This document shows positions 1,511 to 6,319 of a stretch of 6,319 nt of DNA, piece after piece. The translations under genes and the position numbers were made by a program. Each line of letters starts with the position of its first letter. The stretch's first letter is position 1. The notes under the pieces were generated by a model that was given only the letters and a program-made list of their open reading frames with translations, was not told where the DNA came from and did not search any database. Where the stretch lies: positions 1-6,319 of IMG/VR virus record IMGVR_UViG_3300045988_067702; one strand, written 5' to 3'. This stretch comes from a virus.

Positions 1511-2530
1511 ATGTCTGCTACTATTGGTGCTGCCGCTATCACTGCTGGTGCTGGTCTTTTAGGTTCTTTGTTTGGTTCTAAAAAGCAGGATAAAAATGCC
1601 CAAGCGCAACGTGATTGGCAGGAGAAAATGTATCTTATGGATAGAGAATATAATACTGCTGCAAATCAGCGTAAGCGTTTTGAAGAAGCAGGTCTCAATC
1701 CTAATTTGATGATGAATGGTTCTGCTGGTTCTGTTTCTGGTTCTATTCCATCCACATCTATGTCCAATTCTGGTGAAACTTTGTCACAAGGTATTAGTTC
1801 TGCAGGTTCATCTGCTGCCCAGATGATTGCTCAGCAGATGGATATTAATGCTCAAAAGAATGTTCGTGATGCCGAGACTCGTAAAGCTGATGAAGAAGCT
1901 GACTATACTGGTCAGATGACAGAAGCGCAACGTATGCAAAATATGTATCTTTTACAGACTTTGCAGGCTAAGACAAAAAATCTTCAGCTTAGGAATGTTT
2001 ATCAAGAGCTCGAAAATAAATACGCACAAGATTCTTTGGATGCTCGTGTAGATTTGGTTAATGCTCAAAACCAATCTCTTGCTAATCGTGCTTATCTCGA
2101 TGCAATGAATGCTGCCCTTGCTGATACTCAGAACCGTATTTCTAAGGTTAATTTGTCTTGGCTTCCTGCTGAAAAACAAGCAGGTTTAGCAAATGTTATT
2201 GCTCAGTCCGCTTTATTTGCTGCTCAACGTGGAATGGCTGCTGCAGCTGCTCGTATGTACGTTTCGTCTGCTGCTCTTAATTATGCTAATGAGTCTGGTA
2301 TTAAGATAGATAATGATTTCAGAAAAGCTACTCAGCAATTATCTATTGATGCAACAAATGATTCTAGTCGCTGGACTCAGCAGAAGTATGAAGATACTCA
2401 AAGTCCTGCTAATAAGCTTTGGCGTTGGCTTGGTATTGATGGTTCTTGGTTACCTGCTGCTGGTGCTTATGCTTTTGGTAAATCTACCAAAGTTATGCAT
2501 GCTCCTAAAAAAGTTAAAGGTTTCCATTAG
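1511..2530 (+). CDS. VP2: DNA pilot / minor capsid protein (Microviridae VP2 / H-like), 339 aa.
   Basis: Track ORF 1487..2530 starts at TTG. The in-frame ATG at 1511 is the likely start. The N-terminus is a Gly/Ala-rich hydrophobic helix (MSATIGAAAITAGAGLLGSLFG). It is followed by QRDWQEKMYLMDREYNTAANQRKRFEEAGLNPNLMM, which matches the conserved pilot-protein block (...NTAxQRxxxxxAGLNPxL...) as I remember it, then by long Ala/Gln-rich helical segments. Confidence 0.85.
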   Translation: MSATIGAAAITAGAGLLGSLFGSKKQDKNAQAQRDWQEKMYLMDREYNTAANQRKRFEEAGLNPNLMMNGSAGSVSGSIPSTSMSNSGETLSQGISSAGSSAAQMIAQQMDINAQKNVRDAETRKADEEADYTGQMTEAQRMQNMYLLQTLQAKTKNLQLRNVYQELENKYAQDSLDARVDLVNAQNQSLANRAYLDAMNAALADTQNRISKVNLSWLPAEKQAGLANVIAQSALFAAQRGMAAAAARMYVSSAALNYANESGIKIDNDFRKATQQLSIDATNDSSRWTQQKYEDTQSPANKLWRWLGIDGSWLPAAGAYAFGKSTKVMHAPKKVKGFH

Positions 2531-2680
2531 TAAAATGACTTTATAATCCATTTTTGGTATGTCATTTACTATTATATATTTATGCGTGTGTATTTTTTAT
2601 ATATATTTATATATAGATTTACGCACGTATTTTTTTATCTTATTTCATTCTGCTTCTGTTTTCCCGATTCTAGCATACAC

Positions 2681-2710
2681 TCATTAGTTATTATTAGTTA
2701 TCATTAGTTA
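2681..2710. repeat. Three tandem 10-bp repeats (iteron-like): tcattagtta / ttattagtta / tcattagtta.
   Basis: Read directly. The period is exactly 10 nt. A fourth 9/10 copy, tcattagcta, lies at 2948..2957 on the far side of the hairpin island. Confidence 0.85.
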
Positions 2711-2712
2711 TT

Positions 2713-2720
2713 TACTTTTG
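2713..2720 (+). promoter_or_regulatory. Exact match to the Bacteroides-type -7 promoter element TAnnTTTG (tacttttg), just upstream of the hairpin island.
   Basis: The motif match was read directly. No TTTG (-33 element) sits at the expected spacing upstream, and such 8-mers occur by chance in T-rich DNA. Confidence 0.2.
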
Positions 2721-2725
2721 TGCTT

Positions 2726-2935
2726 CGGTCGTGAACGGTTCGAAGAACCCGACCGCTTATCATCTCAAAGTCTCCCGTAAGGCTGTGATACCATGAAAAA
2801 CACTAGCCTTTCGGTTCCTTTGGGCAATGCCAAAGGAACTGGGGTTTGGGGCAACGCCCCATAAGACAGGAAACGTAGTTTCCGCTCCTTCCGCTTCCGG
2901 ATGACCGGAAGTGGGGTTATAGGGGCAACGCCCCT
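2726..2935 (+). other. GC-rich array of seven consecutive stem-loops. It could be a structured ssDNA element such as a complementary-strand origin, or a structured ncRNA. Function is unknown.
   Basis: The seven hairpins are: H1 2726..2755 (cggtcg/cgaccg enclosing ggttc-GAA-gaacc); H2 2779..2810 (aaggct+gtg / cac+agcctt); H3 2814..2839 (10-bp stem gttcctttgg/ccaaaggaac); H4 2848..2860 (ggggc-AAC-gcccc); H5 2869..2883 (ggaaac-GTA-gtttcc); H6 2891..2914 (ccgcttccgg-ATGA-ccggaagtgg, one G.T); H7 2921..2935 (aggggc-AAC-gcccct). My hand count gives 118/220 G+C for 2721..2940. The track shows no ORF of 60 aa or more on either strand. Confidence 0.8.
2758..2772. repeat. 15-bp direct repeat tatcatctcaaagtc, left copy (its partner is at 2956..2970).
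   Basis: Exact 15/15 identity read directly. Together with the 10-mer tcattagYta it forms a 23-nt unit. That unit is intact at 2948..2970 and split on the left side by 2711..2757. Confidence 0.9.
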
Positions 2936-2955
2936 AATCGCCTGCTATCATTAGC

Positions 2956-2970
2956 TATCATCTCAAAGTC
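2956..2970. repeat. 15-bp direct repeat tatcatctcaaagtc, right copy.
   Basis: Exact identity with 2758..2772. The two copies bracket hairpins H2 to H7. Confidence 0.9.
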
Positions 2971-2972
2971 CT

Positions 2973-2988
2973 TATCTTATATAAGATA
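2973..2988. repeat. Perfect 16-bp palindrome tatcttatataagata.
   Basis: It equals its own reverse complement, checked by hand. It starts 3 nt after the right 15-bp repeat. Confidence 0.85.
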
Positions 2989-2994
2989 TTACGA

Positions 2995-3019
2995 AATCGG
3001 TGTTTACTTTCCACCGATT
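2995..3019 (+). other. Stem-loop with an 8-bp stem (aatcggtg / caccgatt) and a 9-nt loop.
   Basis: Read directly: 2995..3002 pairs with 3012..3019. Confidence 0.6.
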
Positions 3020-3162
3020 CAGTCTCTTCTAGTTTATCTACTGTTAAAGTGACACCGACTTAATAAGGTTCGCTTGCTAGGTACGTTCTACTGTATTCGT
3101 ATCAGTTTCTTTATGTCGGTGATAATTTATGCACTTTAATCGTTTCCTATTCATAGATAGCA

Positions 3163-3174
3163 TTTCACGTGAAA
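3163..3174. repeat. Perfect 12-bp palindrome tttcacgtgaaa (CACGTG core).
   Basis: It equals its own reverse complement, checked by hand. Confidence 0.8.
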
Positions 3175-3197
3175 CATTGTAAAAGTAAACTAATATT

Positions 3198-3225
3198 TGT
3201 TAATATAACGTCCCTTATGTTATAA
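3198..3225 (+). other. dif-like 28-mer tgttaatataa-cgtccc-ttatgttataa, a candidate Xer recombination / attP site.
   Basis: Compared by eye with E. coli dif GGTGCGCATAA-TGTATA-TTATGTTAAAT. The right arm matches 9/11, including TTATGTTA. The left arm matches 6/11, including the terminal ATAA. The ATAA-N6-TTAT geometry is kept. The AT-rich context makes a chance match plausible. Confidence 0.25.
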
Positions 3226-3307
3226 CGTATCTATTTTTTTTGTAATATTGCACTCGAAATCAGTTGCTTTATGTTTCTGGTATCTTTAATGTTTAATTTA
3301 AATTGTT

Positions 3308-3559
3308 ATGATTATGGAAAAGGTTATTTCTGATTCTGAGCGGTCTCAATTCTTTAATAATGAATTGCGTGACTATTTTAAGGTTATTGTAACCTCTAAT
3401 GTCTTGGGTGATGTTTATACTACTCATTATGCTGTCCGTACTGATGAAGTTTCTTCTTTTATGGATTCAGTGTATGATACTTATGGTAATGATGCGGTTA
3501 TTCAGTTTAATGGTATCTTTCAGCAGAAAGATACTCGCTTCTGGTTCACTATGGTTTAA
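3308..3559 (+). CDS. Hypothetical protein, 83 aa (81 aa if it starts at ATG 3314).
   Basis: It is the first ORF after the noncoding region. Its NNT-biased codon usage matches the structural genes. The second ATG at 3314 sits in the recurrent tgATTATG context. I recognise no motif. Confidence 0.6.
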   Translation: MIMEKVISDSERSQFFNNELRDYFKVIVTSNVLGDVYTTHYAVRTDEVSSFMDSVYDTYGNDAVIQFNGIFQQKDTRFWFTMV

Positions 3560-3663: not shown

Positions 3664-3864
3664 ATGAAAAAAGAAGTTATCAAGATTATTATTAAGGTGC
3701 TTATTTATGCTCTTAGTTTGATTGGCATTTATTTTGGTGTTTCAGCTATGACTAGTTGCACTGTTCAGCGTCAGTTTGACTCTTTTGGTAAAGGTACGAT
3801 TATCGTATCCGATACTACATATATTTCTCATTCTGGTTCTTGGTTTTTTAAACATGTTCGGTGA
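3664..3864 (+). CDS. Small predicted lipoprotein, 66-aa precursor with a mature part of about 35 aa.
   Basis: MKKEVIKIIIKVLIYALSLIGIYFGVSAMTSC has a Lys-rich n-region, an uncharged h-region and a lipobox-like A-M-T-S-C with Cys32. This fits the PROSITE-style lipoprotein rule as I recall it. Its TGA stop (3862..3864) is 2 nt before the Rep ATG, which suggests translational coupling. Confidence 0.65.
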   Translation: MKKEVIKIIIKVLIYALSLIGIYFGVSAMTSCTVQRQFDSFGKGTIIVSDTTYISHSGSWFFKHVR

Positions 3865-3866
3865 TT

Positions 3867-5357
3867 ATGAATAACGTGACTCCTTGGGTTTCTTGTTTTA
3901 AGCCCGTAAGTATTAGAGATTGTTTTGGTCGTGTTCAGATGGTTGGCTGCGGTTCTTGTCCTGCTTGTCAGGAACTTAAACGTAATAGCTTGAGTAACCG
4001 TCTTGCTCTTGAGGAGCAAAGGTCAGAGTTTTGTTCTTTCGTTACTTTGACTTATGACGAAACTCATTTGCCTATTGTGGATGTTTCTCGTTTATTTTCT
4101 GCTTCTGATGGTGAGGTTGTTAATTTGCAGCAGAATCATGATTTTAACGAAGATTTTTCTACACCTACTGTCGTTAATACTGAAGAGTTACGTAATAGTG
4201 TGATTTTATACAATAAACATCGTTCTTTTTATAAAGCTAATTTTTCGGTTAATAGAAATGTTACTTATGAAAATAATCAAGTTGCGGTGCTTGTAAATAG
4301 GCATTTGCAGTTATTTATTAAAAGATTTAGAAAATATGTCTCAAAAAATTACAATGAAAAGATACGTTACTACGCTATCGGCGAGTATGGTACGCAGTCG
4401 TTGCGTCCGCATTGGCATATCTTATTTTTCTACTCATCGTCTCAGCTTGCCCGAGATTTTGAAAATGTCCTGCAGTTTGGTACAGAGTCCCGACCTATTC
4501 AAACCCCTGTTTTTTTACGTTCGCTCTGGAAGTTCGGTCACATTGATTCTAAACAGACCGACGGAAAAGCCTATTTTTACGTTTCGTCGTATGTTAATAA
4601 GCCTGCTGATTTTCCCTATGTGCTTGAACTCCTTGCTCCTCCACGTTCGTTTCACTCCAATTATCTTGGAGAGGTTTCTTCGAAAGAAGACATTAAAAAA
4701 TCTTTTCAAGAAAGAAACTTTGAACATATCGGACAAGTTAATGTTATCTCTTGGTCTGGTGAGCAGTATACTTACTCCGTTAGGAGGTCGCTTGTCGGTC
4801 GATTGCTACCACGATATAGCTTCTCAGCTTGCGAGGATGACAGAATTATATTTCGAAAACTTACGCTCTTTGCCGACAATTTCGTTAAATCCAGATATGA
4901 GCAATTAGGTTCTGTTCTTAATTTAGCTACTCATATTTTTAATGCTTGGTATTTTAATAAAGATAATGAATATGCTTCACTTGCTTCCTTATGCGCTCCT
5001 CAGTGTCTGGCTTGTTTGCATTCGGATTTAAATATATTATCTCCGTTATGTTCTGTTTTGTACGCTTCTAAACGTTTTGTTTCCGCTGCCGATTCTTTAG
5101 GTTTCGGTTTGCGTGATTATTTTGATATTTACAAGTCTTATTATCGATGGCTTGATTACTCTCGCTTAGTTGATAATTTATCATTGTGTGAATTGGATTC
5201 GCATTTTGCTTCTGCATATTACGATTCTATTATTGACTTTGATACTTTTTCTGCTACATCTATAGATTTTATGAATTGGTCTAAATCTGTTAAAAATCAG
5301 TTCTGTTCACGGATTAAGCATAGACAGATTGCAGACCGTTATAAGTTTAATATTTAA
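3867..5357 (+). CDS. VP4: Rolling-circle replication initiator, HUH endonuclease superfamily (Microviridae VP4 / phiX174 gene A-like), 496 aa.
   Basis: Motif I is FVTLTY (4038..4055). Motif II (HUH) is RPHWHILFF, with H-W-H at 4410..4418. Motif III is the double-Tyr YVSSYVNK (4578..4601), compared with phiX174 A protein YVAKYVNK. There is an N-terminal Cys cluster C-x8-C-x2-C-x2-C (3921..3968). The track starts the ORF at GTG 3861, but ATG 3867 in the tgATTATG context is preferred. Confidence 0.9.
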   Translation: MNNVTPWVSCFKPVSIRDCFGRVQMVGCGSCPACQELKRNSLSNRLALEEQRSEFCSFVTLTYDETHLPIVDVSRLFSASDGEVVNLQQNHDFNEDFSTPTVVNTEELRNSVILYNKHRSFYKANFSVNRNVTYENNQVAVLVNRHLQLFIKRFRKYVSKNYNEKIRYYAIGEYGTQSLRPHWHILFFYSSSQLARDFENVLQFGTESRPIQTPVFLRSLWKFGHIDSKQTDGKAYFYVSSYVNKPADFPYVLELLAPPRSFHSNYLGEVSSKEDIKKSFQERNFEHIGQVNVISWSGEQYTYSVRRSLVGRLLPRYSFSACEDDRIIFRKLTLFADNFVKSRYEQLGSVLNLATHIFNAWYFNKDNEYASLASLCAPQCLACLHSDLNILSPLCSVLYASKRFVSAADSLGFGLRDYFDIYKSYYRWLDYSRLVDNLSLCELDSHFASAYYDSIIDFDTFSATSIDFMNWSKSVKNQFCSRIKHRQIADRYKFNI

Positions 5358-5368
5358 TTATTTTTTTT

Positions 5369-6319
5369 ATGGCAAATCGTTCCGATATTATGGGTTTGCA
5401 TGGTTTGAAAAACAAGCCGTCTCGAAACTCTTTTGACGTTTCAGCCCGCAATTTGTTCACCGCCAAAATCGGTGAACTTCTTCCTTGCGCCGTTTACGAA
5501 ATGAACCCAGGTGATTCAATTCGTATTGATGCAAGTTATTTTACTAGAACTGCACCTTTGCAGACTGCTGCTTTTACTCGCCTTCGTGAGAATGTTCAGT
5601 TCTTTTTTGTTCCTTATTCTCAACTTTGGAAGTATTTCAATACTCAGGTTTTGAATATGACTACTTCGGCCTCTGGGCAAGATGCTTCACGCATTGCTAC
5701 CTCTCCTTTTGCTAACGAAAAGGTTACAACAGGTATGCCTTATGTTGCTTATTCTGCCTTGCACAAATATTTGTACAAGATGGGTCAAGCTGCTAAGTCT
5801 AAATTTACTAAAGGTGATTTTTCTGACAAATTTAAAAATTCTGTTTTTGATAATAACGGTGAATATCGTTGGTCTGCATCCTCTAAGCTTCTTCAGCTTC
5901 TCGGTTACGGTCGTTTTGATTATCAAAATATGTCTTTTGAAGATTTTGCAGATAGTTCTGTGATAGGTATGACTCATCTTCCTAATGTGTCTGTCTTCCG
6001 TCTTCTTGCTTACCATAAGATTTGTAATGACCATTATCAGTTCCGTCAGTGGCAGGGATATGATGCATCTTTATGTAATGTCGATTATGTTACTCCATCT
6101 GGTTCTATGGATTTGTCTACTCAGCTTGAGCAGGTTAACTTCGATTCTGGTAAGAATGCCGACCGTTTGAATTTCTTGGATTTACGCTTCAGCAATCTTC
6201 CTTTGGATTATTTGAATGGTGTTTTGCCTTCTGCTCAATTTGGTTCTGAGTCTGTTGTATCTTTACCATCTAAATCTGTTTCGACAAGATCTGATGGTGA
6301 TGCTTGGCATATTAATGGA
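5369..6319 (+). CDS. VP1: Major capsid protein (Microviridae VP1 / F family), N-terminal part. It continues across the circular junction into 1..991. The full gene is join(5369..6264,1..991), 628 aa.
   Basis: ATG at 5369 is the first start after an in-frame TAA at 5348..5350, 11 nt after the Rep stop. My hand translation found no stop to the window end: MANRSDIMGLHGLKNKPSRNSFDVSARNLFTAKIGELLPCAVYEMNPGDSIRIDASYFTRTAPLQTAAFTRLRENVQFFFVPYSQLW... This block resembles the conserved N-terminal jelly-roll strands of microvirus capsid proteins. The gene is not in the ORF track because it has no stop inside the window. Confidence 0.9.
   Translation, partial: MANRSDIMGLHGLKNKPSRNSFDVSARNLFTAKIGELLPCAVYEMNPGDSIRIDASYFTRTAPLQTAAFTRLRENVQFFFVPYSQLWKYFNTQVLNMTTSASGQDASRIATSPFANEKVTTGMPYVAYSALHKYLYKMGQAAKSKFTKGDFSDKFKNSVFDNNGEYRWSASSKLLQLLGYGRFDYQNMSFEDFADSSVIGMTHLPNVSVFRLLAYHKICNDHYQFRQWQGYDASLCNVDYVTPSGSMDLSTQLEQVNFDSGKNADRLNFLDLRFSNLPLDYLNGVLPSAQFGSESVVSLPSKSVSTRSDGDAWHING
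6265..6319. repeat. Terminal redundancy, copy 2, identical to 1..55 (circular assembly overlap).
   Basis: Exact 55/55 identity with the window start, read by eye. Confidence 0.95.

Follow-up and report, generated by a model that had tools for sequence, protein, structure and literature searches.

What is a GC-rich island flanked by direct repeats doing in the genome of a small phage, and did it arrive there by insertion? This question is raised by a viral sequence of 6,319 nucleotides, hereafter called the window, which corresponds to a complete circular microvirus genome (6264 nt followed by a 55-nt assembly overlap). The long open reading frames, including the capsid, pilot-protein and Rep genes, are all carried by the + strand, and in Microviridae the packaged strand is the coding strand. 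The pilot-protein gene ends at position 2530 and is followed by a gap without long ORF (2531-3307), which hosts the island and its flanking signals. No tRNA or tmRNA gene was detected in the window by ARAGORN, and in the public records that we examined the corresponding region is either unannotated or bears doubtful ORF calls.

The direct repeat and the insertion hypothesis

The original prediction described a 23-nt unit, contiguous on the right side of the island and split by a 47-nt insert on the left side. A position search confirmed the contiguous copy, TCATTAGCTATCATCTCAAAGTC, at 2948-2970, the sequence TCATTAGTTA at 2701-2710, and the 47 nt between 2711 and 2757, which contain the hairpin H1 and the motif TACTTTTG (2713-2720) and have TA on either side. 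The GC content of 2773-2947 is 54.3%, compared to 36.7% genome-wide. The remainder of the left copy, TATCATCTCAAAGTC, is also present, with its start at 2758 rather than at 2759. This 15-nt sequence is repeated exactly on the + strand, at 2758-2772 and 2956-2970, and its complement is found nowhere in the window. An exact repeat of 15 nt was reached by 5 of 1000 dinucleotide shuffles of the region 2500-3350 and by 18 of 300 shuffles of the whole window; the repeat is beyond chance. However, considering the left half as a unique half-site of a split 23-mer is an over-reading: 2701-2710 is the third of three tandem 10-nt units (TCATTAGTTAT, TATTAGTTAT and CATTAGTTAT; 2681..2712, + strand), and TCATTAGTTATT occurs additionally at 2681-2692. 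The 10-nt unit recurs 3' of hairpin H7 in the window and in two relatives (L027 and L013), and the CATTAGTTATCATTA motif of the 10-nt array is found in Dulem virus 232 too, which has no island. As the 10-nt unit and the 15-mer both hold TATCAT, the right-hand arrangement reads as a single 23-mer. Because the left half is a unit of the tandem array, the solid observation is a 15-nt direct repeat that, with dispersed 10-nt units, flanks the island.

The two copies of the 15-mer differ in their distribution among relatives. The left copy (2758..2772) is the single-stranded linker between H1 and the mini-hairpin M, and a linker of the form gcttatYAnctcaaagtc follows H1 in L010, L040, L029, L030 and L027, which all lack the right copy. 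The right copy (2956..2970) is restricted to the lineage of the window (L162, L036, L174, L175 and, with one mismatch, L232), being absent from L027 and from every other clade compared. The right copy is most likely a lineage-specific duplication of the linker, adjoining a copy of the 10-nt unit, which arose by recombination or slippage. The proposal of a recombination-generated duplication gives the likeliest origin of the right copy. The surrounding intergenic region is rich in repeats and often rearranged.

We then asked whether the island is a recently inserted mobile or satellite-like element, or captured host DNA, delimited by att-like cores or by a target-site duplication, H1 being a secondary insertion, flanked by TA, in the left core. 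In line with this hypothesis, the GC-rich core lies between true direct repeats of 15 nt, in a second lineage (L009, L025, L013) it lies between different ones of 22-36 nt, some distant relatives lack the core, and the similarity pattern of the core disagrees with that of the proteins. However, we detected no empty site: every one of six close relatives (L162/L172, L036, L174, L175, L232) has both copies and a homologous island, which is the situation in which the original prediction held that insertion should be abandoned, and scans of viral and metagenome collections with the contiguous 23-mer retrieved island-bearing genomes only. The next closest relative, L027, has the island without the right copy. 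The boundaries of the repeats do not match the limits of homology and differ between the two lineages (-35 versus about -103 relative to the conserved A-box described below), and in the majority of carriers the core is not flanked by repeats. Distant carriers devoid of the right copy share the conserved region that contains H1 and the left copy; the left copy, as a conserved linker inside the element, is hence not a junction. H1 itself is not an insert but a conserved component, the stems of which change in compensating pairs.

The attachment site of the phage lies elsewhere. In the provirus L091, a core, ACCATAATACCGGTTA, is duplicated at both prophage ends, at the position homologous to 3199-3225 of the window, where the dif-like candidate site GTTAATATAA-CGTCCC-TTATGTTATAA is found (3199..3225, + strand). 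Microvirus proviruses of Bacteroidetes are known to use dif-like att sites (PMC3091885). The prophage ends of L091 indicate that the attachment site is this dif-like sequence and not the 15/23-mer, which lies ~230 nt upstream and is unrelated in sequence. The dif-like attP sites of temperate Bacteroidetes microviruses (BMV proviruses; Krupovic and Forterre 2011) belong to the same phage group and occupy the same intergenic region; they yield true attL/attR direct repeats bracketing the whole prophage, whereas the 15/23-mer brackets the island. Finally, all copies of the element that our searches recovered lie in microvirus genomes or proviruses. Nearly all of the at least 120 matches listed by a scan of genome collections with a 16-mer were chance matches, the L091 provirus being the only real one; a gapped pattern scan for more divergent members gave chance matches only, and the sole homologue retrieved by a plasmid search is a microvirus deposited as a Pseudomonas aeruginosa plasmid. 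Taken together, these results largely refute the mobile-insertion model, which we now regard as very improbable. The notion of a mobile island is retained at the scale of the family, at which the island behaves as an exchangeable module (patchy distribution, discordance between DNA and protein similarity, variable module order), but not as a recent insertion.

A conserved array of hairpins on the packaged strand

Comparison with relatives demonstrated that the GC island is the 5' core of a conserved hairpin array and not a foreign insertion. H1 (2726-2755), the GC island (about 2775-2942) and a 3' module (2995-3056) constitute a series of independent, very stable hairpins on the packaged (+) strand, on which all the features below are located. 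Upstream, 3' of the pilot-protein gene, lies a hairpin, TGCGTGTGT...ACGCACGTA, followed by a T-run (2583..2636), which was read from the sequence as a probable terminator. An equivalent hairpin and T-run are found at the same place in relatives, and end 3 nt before H1 in L029, L030, L010 and L040. Downstream, comparison with relatives identified a conserved palindromic box, CATTTCACGTGAAACATTG (3161..3179), and 5' of the early genes and Rep stands a Bacteroidota-type -7 promoter element, TAATATTG (consensus TAnnTTTG), followed by a conserved GCACTCGAAATCAG (3243..3263). The -7 element is kept as TAtaTTTGcactcgaaatcag in L009, L091 and others, and this segment probably acts as a promoter.

Folding showed that H1 (2726..2755) comprises an outer stem (CGGTCG/CGACCG), a bulge (TGAAC), an inner stem (GGTTC/GAACC) and a GAA triloop. 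Compensating changes give GGCTC-GTA-GAGCC in L162, AGTTC-GAA-GAACT in L174, GGCTC-GAA-GAGCC in L175 and CGGCAG..GGCAC-GAA-GTGCC..CTGCCG in L027. Beyond the linker, the alignment revealed the mini-hairpin M, CCGTAAGG (2775..2782), of the (G/C)CGNNAG(C/G) type and with a stem of only 2 bp. M reads CCG-NN-AGG or GCG-NN-AGC in 38 of 39 genomes and GCGAAGC in the remaining one, but never the mixed form; its outer pair is C-G in 21 rows and G-C in 13. Its loop fits GNRA in 5 of 38 cases and has a pyrimidine at position 3 in 32 of 38. M is followed by the A-box, ATACCATGAAAAACACTAGCC (2788..2808), a nearly invariant unpaired sequence as judged from the alignment columns, the 16-mer ATGAAAAACACTAGCC of which is found exactly in 35 IMG/VR contigs. 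A short reading frame that would begin at the A-box ATG (MKNTSL...) was considered and rejected: the spacing between the A-box and GGGCAATGCC in the loop of H3 is 11, 13 or 15 nt, and as it shifts by 2 nt with the length of the stem, the frame is not kept and the A-box is non-coding. Also rejected was the pairing P2 (AAGGCT/AGCCTT), which would close the A-box into a loop: the window could form it but the GCG..GCC class could not, and it is M that covaries instead.

Downstream of the A-box, inverted-repeat searches and folding delineated further hairpins: H3 (GTTCCTTTGG, loop GCAATG, CCAAAGGAAC; 2814..2839), H4 (TGGGGC-AAC-GCCCCA; 2847..2861), H5 (GGAAAC-GTA-GTTTCC; 2869..2883), H6 (CTTCCGG-ATGA-CCGGAAG; 2894..2911) and a conserved segment composed of GGTTA, H7 (TAGGGGC-AAC-GCCCCTA) and ATCGCC (2915..2942). 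H4 is found in the lineage of the window and in L027, other small hairpins being present instead in other clades. H5 has a GNA triloop closed by a C-G pair, and this loop varies at its middle base only: GTA in the window, L162, L036 and L174, GCA in L027 and L175, and GAA in L232. Homologues of H6 in other clades bear compensating changes (GTTCCGC...GCGGAAC or CTTCCGT...ACGGAAG). The eight versions of H7 that were scored have 7- or 10-bp stems, all Watson-Crick, with conserved TAGGG/CCCTA feet, and longer versions exist in further genomes. The tail that follows H7, TGCTATCATTAGC (2943..2955), is one copy of the 10-nt unit, the last 8 nt being the 5' part of the 23-mer; cgccAGTTATCRTTAGTT is found at the post-H7 position in nearly all relatives. 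H8 is a perfect palindrome, TATCTTATATAAGATA (2973..2988), partly kept in close relatives. The 3' module consists of H9 (AATCGGTG, TTTACTTTC, CACCGATT; 2995..3019), homologues of which, with 7-bp stems and pyrimidine-rich loops, are found in L001, L002, L009, L010, L029 and L004, and of a pyrimidine-rich tract, CTCTTCTAGTT, ending with a TGACAC motif (3020..3056). In relatives this end has the form cYcttgtYc...a(a/c)tgacac, and Dulem virus 232, devoid of the 5' core, has it too. Two additional candidate elements were discarded: a CRESS-like nonanucleotide, AGATATTAC (2984-2992), is not conserved even in L232, which has ATTTC, and a G-quadruplex built from four GGGG tracts is contradicted by a large clade having GG or GGG only.

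The pairing within the array is maintained by selection. In the alignment of M and H3, 97.7% of the cells are paired, compared to 81.8% in shuffles, and 81 cells show a double change, compared to 27 in shuffles, a value that none of 500 shuffles reached; when the 3' partners were moved by 1-3 columns, 41-67% of the cells were paired. In the 23 distinct versions of H3, pairs 1-9 are Watson-Crick in 206 of 207 cases, with no G-T pair; both sides have changed in 6 of 10 pairs, and a one-sided change was found in none. Compensating pair changes or length variation were also observed for H1, H6 and H7. The array is strand-asymmetric as well. GNA triloops and mini-hairpins of the M type predominate among its loops. 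When distinct triloop hairpins were counted (52, with stems of 4 bp or more), 23 had a GNA loop (13 of them closed by C-G) and 4 the complementary TNC; in an overall count on the + strand, GNA and GNNA loops amount to 136 and the complements TNC and TNNC to 20. Most tetraloops are GNYA, and some loops (GTAA, GCAA and GAAA) also fit the RNA motif GNRA. Internal mismatches are G-T in 7 of 43 cases, about the chance level. With RNA parameters the fold of the + strand is the more stable of the two in 27 of 38 genomes, and the fold z-score of the window is -6.2; with DNA parameters it is -9.2 for the + strand and -6.8 for the - strand. The loop classes, the absence of one-sided changes in H3 and the level of G-T suggest that the pairing and loop features are DNA-like rather than RNA-like.

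The array is present in about 40 microvirus contigs, the Rep and capsid proteins of which are 23-37% and 27-67% identical, respectively, to those of the window, whereas the A-box and H3 show 74-89% DNA identity. This conservation of the DNA across divergent Rep and capsid proteins suits recognition by a host factor. The array keeps a constant position, between the terminator-like hairpin that follows the pilot-protein gene and the early/Rep promoter. Its modules are independent of one another: L004 and L005 have no H3, and in L005 the modules stand in the reverse order. The 5' core is absent in the relatives Dulem virus 232 and Bacteroides phage phiHBP1, which manage without it, and is therefore not universally required. 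The patchy distribution and the discordance between its similarity pattern and that of the proteins indicate that the array has been exchanged in a cassette-like manner among divergent microviruses.

Candidate functions of the array

From its conservation, covariation, strand asymmetry, loop types and position, as observed above, we infer that the array functions in priming. Judging from the sequence comparisons, it may be a cis-acting single-stranded DNA replication signal on the viral strand, most likely the complementary-strand (minus-strand) origin, an assignment to which we give about even chances. In the proposed mechanism, host SSB would coat the viral strand after injection and after every rolling-circle round, whereas the mini-hairpins ((G/C)CGNNAG(C/G), C-GNA-G) and the longer GC stems would remain folded and frame the unpaired conserved tracts, namely the linker, the A-box and the post-H7 tail. 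Host primase or RNA polymerase would recognise this landmark and synthesise a primer, allowing conversion of the single-stranded DNA to the double-stranded replicative form; this priming step would need no Rep. The DNA mini-hairpin motif GCGNNAGC/GCGNAGC, reviewed in PMC13037366, matches M, and mini-hairpins are found at single-stranded DNA priming sites such as those of G4 (GCGAAAGC) and of St-1 and alpha3 (GCGTTAGC), as well as in RSF1010 ssiA (CCGAAGG) and in the phage N4 promoters (GCGGAGC) (PMC13037366). In L027 and L040, M has exactly the sequence GCGTTAGC. The lagging-strand origin of rolling-circle replicons depends on host enzymes alone (PMC5714925). A blastn search against phages and plasmids retrieved microvirus relatives only and no similarity to a characterised origin. 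Several observations argue against a complementary-strand origin. The array, about 400 nt here and more than 600 nt in some relatives, exceeds the known G4- or phiX174-type signals; the nearly invariant A-box, set amid repeats that are specific to each lineage, is also reminiscent of a Rep nick site and its iterons, and the nonanucleotides of CRESS viruses are likewise conserved across very divergent Reps; and read-through transcripts of the late operon would carry the array sequence, some loops of which fit RNA GNRA.

These last observations lead to two other readings. The array might be a large structured non-coding RNA or UTR, made by late read-through or from an unrecognised promoter and acting, for instance, to control lysogeny or immunity, to manipulate the host or to stabilise mRNA. 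It lies on the sense strand, with strong covariation and with conserved unpaired sequences and loops, and its RNA fold z-score and the greater stability of the + strand are as expected for an RNA. Some G..A tetraloops fit GNRA, and TATAGG/CCTAAT near H7 loosely recalls a tetraloop receptor, although the match to the 11-nt receptor is not exact and amounts to no more than a resemblance. These microviruses are temperate, and no repressor was found among the ORFs scanned against Pfam. However, Rfam gave no match for window positions 2640-3300 (E up to 10) or for the homologous regions of eight relatives (E up to 1), and neither Rfam nor literature searches provided a description of the hairpin array. 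No conserved promoter was found, and in four genomes H1 starts 3 nt after the terminator-like hairpin and T-run; the TAnnTTTG motif at 2713 was rejected as a promoter for such an RNA, being lost in L036 and L175 and not enriched in the window (7 found versus 8.5 expected). Triloops of the GNA class and GNYA loops closed by a 2-bp stem characterise DNA mini-hairpins and make poor RNA motifs, G-U pairs are not enriched, and H3 shows no G-U intermediates despite repeated switches from U-A to C-G. We saw no conserved long-range helices, nor is there in the window a complement of the 15-mer, and the loss and reordering of modules between genomes do not fit one global RNA fold. An RNA function is thus unlikely; that the 400-600-nt array represents a new class of phage non-coding RNA of temperate gut microviruses, acting in immunity, lysogeny or host manipulation and exchanged horizontally at ~25% protein identity, is a distinctly doubtful proposition.

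Alternatively, the array might be the viral-strand (+) origin or another protein site, at which Rep would nick the A-box or the post-H7 tail, the repeats would be iterons and the hairpins would expose the site. The A-box is indeed an invariant unpaired box between hairpins on the strand that Rep nicks, and the repeats flanking the core differ by lineage (10-nt units here, 22-nt units in L009 and L025). One 7-mer, AACACTA, is common to the A-box and the right half of the conserved 30-nt phiX174 origin, which we take to be CAACTTGATATTAATAACACTATAGACCAC; the estimated probability of this match by chance is roughly 2-3%. However, a search allowing as many as 3 mismatches found no match to the first 18 nt of the phiX174 origin, no conserved hairpin loop encloses the A-box, P2 cannot form in the GCG..GCC class, and flanking repeats are found in two lineages only. 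Moreover, with nick sites in direct repeat the intervening segment should be lost during rolling-circle replication, relatives with a comparably related Rep lack the 5' core, and seven to twelve hairpins are far beyond what a nick site needs. We therefore judge a (+) origin to be quite unlikely.

Comparison with known origins and significance

The complementary-strand origin remains our preferred reading, and the closest parallels to the array are the primase-dependent origins of G4, St-1, phiK and alpha3 (G4-type ssi), which are likewise non-coding and located between structural genes on the viral strand of a microvirus. The G4-type ssi consist of clustered stable hairpins that presumably remain unbound by SSB and carry the motif GCGNNAGC; M covaries as (G/C)CGNNAG(C/G). 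However, the sequence likeness appears limited to this 8-nt motif, and the hosts of the array are Bacteroidota and not Enterobacteria. While the G4 origin has a few hairpins, the array is much larger, with 7-12 of them over 400-600 nt, and differs further in having an unpaired box of 21 nt that hardly varies and a 3' module that can be separated from the rest.

The single-strand origins of rolling-circle plasmids and ICEs (ssoA, ssoU, the ICEBs1 sso) and RSF1010 ssiA are also strand-specific, structured, non-coding cassettes read by host enzymes only. The sso cassettes are exchanged among replicons with unrelated Rep proteins, and the patchy, cassette-like distribution of the array resembles that of the plasmid sso types, and the difference between phiX174 and G4. 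The CCGAAGG mini-hairpin of ssiA is the motif of GCCGAAGGC in L001 and L002. In contrast to the array, the sso and ssiA systems belong to Firmicutes and Proteobacteria, and no plasmid homologue of the array was found save the microvirus deposited as a plasmid. The filamentous phages f1, M13 and fd have a single long intergenic region with viral-strand hairpins, in which the terminator, the (-) origin and the (+) origin lie side by side. They belong to another virus family, with another type of Rep and no sequence similarity to the array; their (-) origin mimics a sigma-70 promoter, and no comparable mimic is evident in the array. A packaging hairpin of the filamentous-phage kind is not expected in microviruses.

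To our knowledge, the enterobacterial microviruses (phiX174 and the G4-type phages) are the only ones whose complementary-strand origins have been characterised, and our search of the literature on gut microviruses of Bacteroidota found nothing comparable. The array is a concrete candidate that can be tested: its hairpins and its nearly invariant unpaired box of 21 nt are delimited, and L004 and L005 offer natural minimal versions. It opens the way to testing which host enzyme primes the genomes of gut microviruses, whether DNA mini-hairpins are a general mark of single-stranded DNA priming outside Proteobacteria, and whether non-coding replication modules move between microviruses with about 25% protein identity. 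If it is a true origin, the array could be useful for annotation and, we suggest, for the construction of Bacteroides microvirus vectors.

The direct repeat, the insertion model and the attachment site

The window holds an entire microvirus genome: its ends overlap by 55 nt from assembly (1-55 identical to 6265-6319), leaving a circle of 6264 nt. Long ORFs are found on the + strand only and encode, among others, a fragment of the capsid F protein (194-991), a homologue of the pilot protein (1487-2530) and a 498-aa Rep (3861-5357). The repeat and the island, a GC-rich hairpin cluster, lie in the sole long non-coding gap (2531-3307), which is 35% GC overall with a 54% GC stretch at 2773-2947. 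Downstream, a 66-aa ORF at 3664-3864 (MKKEVIKIIIKVLIYALSLIGIYFGVSAMTSC...) resembles a lipoprotein signal peptide with a lipobox cysteine and may encode a lysis or membrane protein; it is 44-57% identical in most divergent clades, some with Rep only ~25% identical, and went undetected in several other clades.

The original prediction read the island as an insertion bracketed by att-like 23-nt cores, a target-site duplication or a recombination-generated duplication, the left copy being split by a 47-nt insert with hairpin H1. The contiguous 23-mer at 2948-2970 and the 47 nt containing H1 between the two left pieces are indeed present. TCATTAGTTA also occurs at 2701-2710 but is not a unique half-site: it is one of three tandem 10-nt units (2681-2712), and TCATTAGTTATT is found also at 2681-2692. 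The exact repeat is the 15-mer TATCATCTCAAAGTC (2758-2772 and 2956-2970), a length reached in only 5 of 1000 dinucleotide shuffles of 2500-3350; since the 10-nt unit and the 15-mer have TATCAT in common, the right-hand arrangement reads as one 23-mer. The right copy is limited to the window's lineage and is best seen as a local duplication.

An insertion was expected to leave relatives with a single uninterrupted 23-mer, and the presence of the island and both repeat copies in all of them had been named as the outcome that would refute it. The refuting outcome is the one obtained. No empty site was found: the close relatives and the 23-mer matches all carry the island. Six close relatives possess the island and both repeat copies: L162/L172, L036 and L174 (pilot protein 89-94%, Rep 89-93% identity), L175 (Rep 92%) and L232 (96.7% DNA identity to 2722-2960). 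A scan of viral and metagenome collections for the 23-mer, with Y allowed at position 8, gave matches in four contigs, and in each of them the island directly adjoins the 23-mer on the left. In L027 (Rep 85%), the island is present and the right copy absent; an upstream tandem duplication of H1 and the linker is found instead. The accession of L232 is NZ_CP050055.1 (6313 bp). Its title is "Pseudomonas aeruginosa strain LIUYANG-A plasmid unnamed2", yet it is a microvirus genome in which a major capsid protein is annotated, and is probably a contaminant or mislabelled record. In L164 (82% pilot-protein identity), the contig end (4160-4238) reads AGCATACACTCATTAGTT followed by a different sequence, ttcatcgatagctatatccacagcttcctttatacc; it may represent a variant lacking both H1 and the left 15-mer, the contig stopping just before the expected start of the A-box, the conserved unpaired sequence described below.

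An attachment site was identified elsewhere. In L091, a phage that carries the element is integrated as a provirus, and ACCATAATACCGGTTA is duplicated at both ends (240-262 and 6810-6832), between a conserved CATTTCACGTGAAAC box and the early promoter, in agreement with the dif-like att sites known for Bacteroidetes microvirus proviruses (PMC3091885). At the homologous position, the window has a dif-like candidate attP, GTTAATATAA-CGTCCC-TTATGTTATAA (3199-3225), unrelated to the 15/23-mer. The L091 contig is labelled Lachnospiraceae, but this bin label is doubtful given the Bacteroidota-type TAtaTTTG promoter element of the neighbouring host gene. L041 terminates in that host flank too, and so appears to be a provirus as well. 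Two further elements of the gap are conserved: (i) a palindromic box, CATTTCACGTGAAACATTG (3161-3179), kept in nearly all relatives ~70-90 nt upstream of the early promoter, which could be an operator or a Rep-binding site, and (ii) a Bacteroidota-type -7 element, TAATATTG (TAtaTTTG in relatives), followed by conserved GCACTCGAAATCAG (3243-3263), which is likely the early/Rep promoter and supports a Bacteroidota host.

A modular hairpin array under selection

A blastn search with the gap matched six pig-gut microviruses among GenBank phages; four of these have annotation nearby, which places the match either downstream of pilot/VP2 or upstream of Rep. An exact copy of the 16-mer ATGAAAAACACTAGCC (2793-2808) is present in 35 microvirus-sized IMG/VR contigs. 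Alignment of its carriers revealed a modular array: H1, variable in form; a linker corresponding to the left repeat copy; the mini-hairpin M (2775-2782); the unpaired, nearly invariant A-box, ATACC(T)ATGAAAAACACTAGCC (2788-2808); H3, with an invariant GCAATG loop; one to three small variable hairpins, represented in the window by H4 and H5; H6; GGTTA, H7 and ATCGCC; and a tail, AGTTATCRTTAGTT, that is conserved. Most genomes then have a 3' module (2995-3056 in the window), in which a hairpin whose loop is rich in pyrimidines precedes a cYcttgtYc tract and TGACAC. As aligned carriers show both H1 and the left repeat copy in the array, these are integral parts of the element, and H1 is not an insert splitting the left copy.

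In some clades the 5' core and the 3' module are separated by inserted hairpins of roughly 30-40 bp. In a large clade (L008, L012, L015 and similar loci), two long near-perfect hairpins of about this size, judged by eye, lie ~20-330 nt after H7, for example gagcgcaacataatagacg...cgtttattatgttgtgcgc with a conserved apical aaaattctgcgtaggcaaatttt, a motif also present in L029, L030 and L039. Part of this module lies directly upstream of the A-box in L019 (~3100-3200).

Covariation was assessed on the M and H3 pairs of 36 aligned genomes. Paired cells amounted to 97.7%, versus 81.8% in shuffles, and double-change cells to 81 versus 27, a number reached in none of 500 shuffles; sliding the 3' partners by 1-3 columns reduced pairing to 41-67%. 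Of the 207 cases given by pairs 1-9 in 23 distinct versions of H3, 206 are Watson-Crick, and the outer pairs are of three or four different Watson-Crick types. For M, 38 of 39 genomes have either CCG-NN-AGG or GCG-NN-AGC, and the mixed form was never found. H1 shows three compensating variants among near-identical genomes, and eight scored versions of H7 have all-Watson-Crick stems of 7 or 10 bp, longer versions existing besides. These data demonstrate that the structure of the array is under selection. Protein coding from the A-box ATG was excluded, as the spacing up to the H3 loop varies between 11, 13 and 15 nt.

Spread among divergent microviruses

Carriers share only 23-37% (Rep) and 27-67% (capsid fragment) identity with the window, whereas the A-box and H3 of divergent carriers are 74-89% identical to it at the DNA level. 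The H1-linker-M segment of the window is closest to those of L010, L040, L029 and L030 (70-76%), whose capsids are only ~29% identical, and less similar (mostly 55-69%) to that of the clade with 58-67% capsid identity. Dulem virus 232 (L236; Rep 31%) lacks the 5' core and keeps the 3' module and the CATTAGTTATCATTA motif. Its 3' module (2205-2290) consists of a CCCGAAGGG mini-hairpin, a hairpin and ctcttgtcc...atgaca; one CATTAGTTATCATTA motif (2485-2500) adjoins a dif-like site within an annotated "hypothetical protein" ORF, which may be spurious. No region of this kind was found in Bacteroides phage phiHBP1.

The core is flanked by direct repeats in two lineages only, and these repeats differ in sequence and in boundaries. 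Taken together, these findings make the core a non-coding module that is old and exchangeable, situated in a region prone to recombination, and not a recent insertion in the window genome. In the second lineage (L009, L025, L013), direct repeats of 22-36 nt lie on both sides of H1-H7, with units like CTCAAGCATACACTAATAGGAC, and may be iteron-like sites or recombination scars; part of these units, AGCATACACTCAT, also occurs in the window, upstream of the 10-nt units. What the original prediction specifically claimed is mostly wrong, and its mobile-insertion model is highly improbable.

Probable folded DNA and a proposed replication function

A number of observations indicate that DNA of the viral strand is what folds. 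Of 52 distinct hairpins that have a triloop and a stem of 4 bp or more, 23 have GNA loops (GAA 11, GTA 8, GCA 4), usually with a C-G closing pair, versus 4 of the complementary TNC class, and in close relatives the H5 loop is GTA, GCA or GAA, the middle base alone varying. According to a recent review, DNA mini-hairpins of the GCGNNAGC and GCGNAGC types are extraordinarily stable and are present at the primase start sites of G4 (GCGAAAGC) and of St-1 and alpha3 (GCGTTAGC), in RSF1010 ssiA (CCGAAGG) and in the phage N4 single-strand promoters (GCGGAGC) (PMC13037366). All four, or direct variants, are found in the element: GCGTTAGC is the M of L027 and L040, the M of L041 is GCGAAGC, GCCGAAGGC is found in L001 and L002, and GCGGAGC in the large clade. 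Of the two strands, the + strand gives the better fold, compared with the - strand.

We consider a structured ncRNA unlikely. The M loops (G-N-N-A on a 2-bp stem) are not RNA GNRA loops, as position 3 is a pyrimidine in 32 of 38; in H3, T-A has repeatedly switched to C-G, yet G-T intermediates are absent, and G-T accounts for 7 of 43 internal mismatches, about the share expected by chance. Modules can be dropped (H3 is absent from L004 and L005) or reordered (in L005, 480-700, the 3' module precedes the 5' core), which fits independent hairpins better than a single RNA fold. Rfam returned no family match to the element in the window or in eight relatives, no conserved promoter was found upstream of H1 among the compared genomes, and in four genomes H1 starts 3 nt after a terminator-like hairpin and T-run. 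We regard a Rep (+) origin or another protein-binding DNA site as rather improbable.

The function class favoured here, a complementary-strand origin or ssDNA replication signal, is already known; Rfam and the literature searched gave no description of this sequence family, its architecture, host group or spread across deeply divergent gut microviruses. The original prediction has nevertheless led to a real and, it appears, undescribed element. We propose, with about even confidence, that the array is a viral-strand ssDNA replication signal, most likely a complementary-strand origin, the priming step being inferred. Stable hairpins would resist SSB on the viral strand, and the conserved single-stranded tracts between them would be presented to host primase or RNA polymerase. 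For the complementary-strand step, rolling-circle replicons rely on host enzymes only (PMC5714925). This would account both for the constancy of the sequence in the face of Rep divergence and for the exchangeability of the module, which resembles that of plasmid sso cassettes. The minus-strand origins of phiX174 and G4 present the same contrast.
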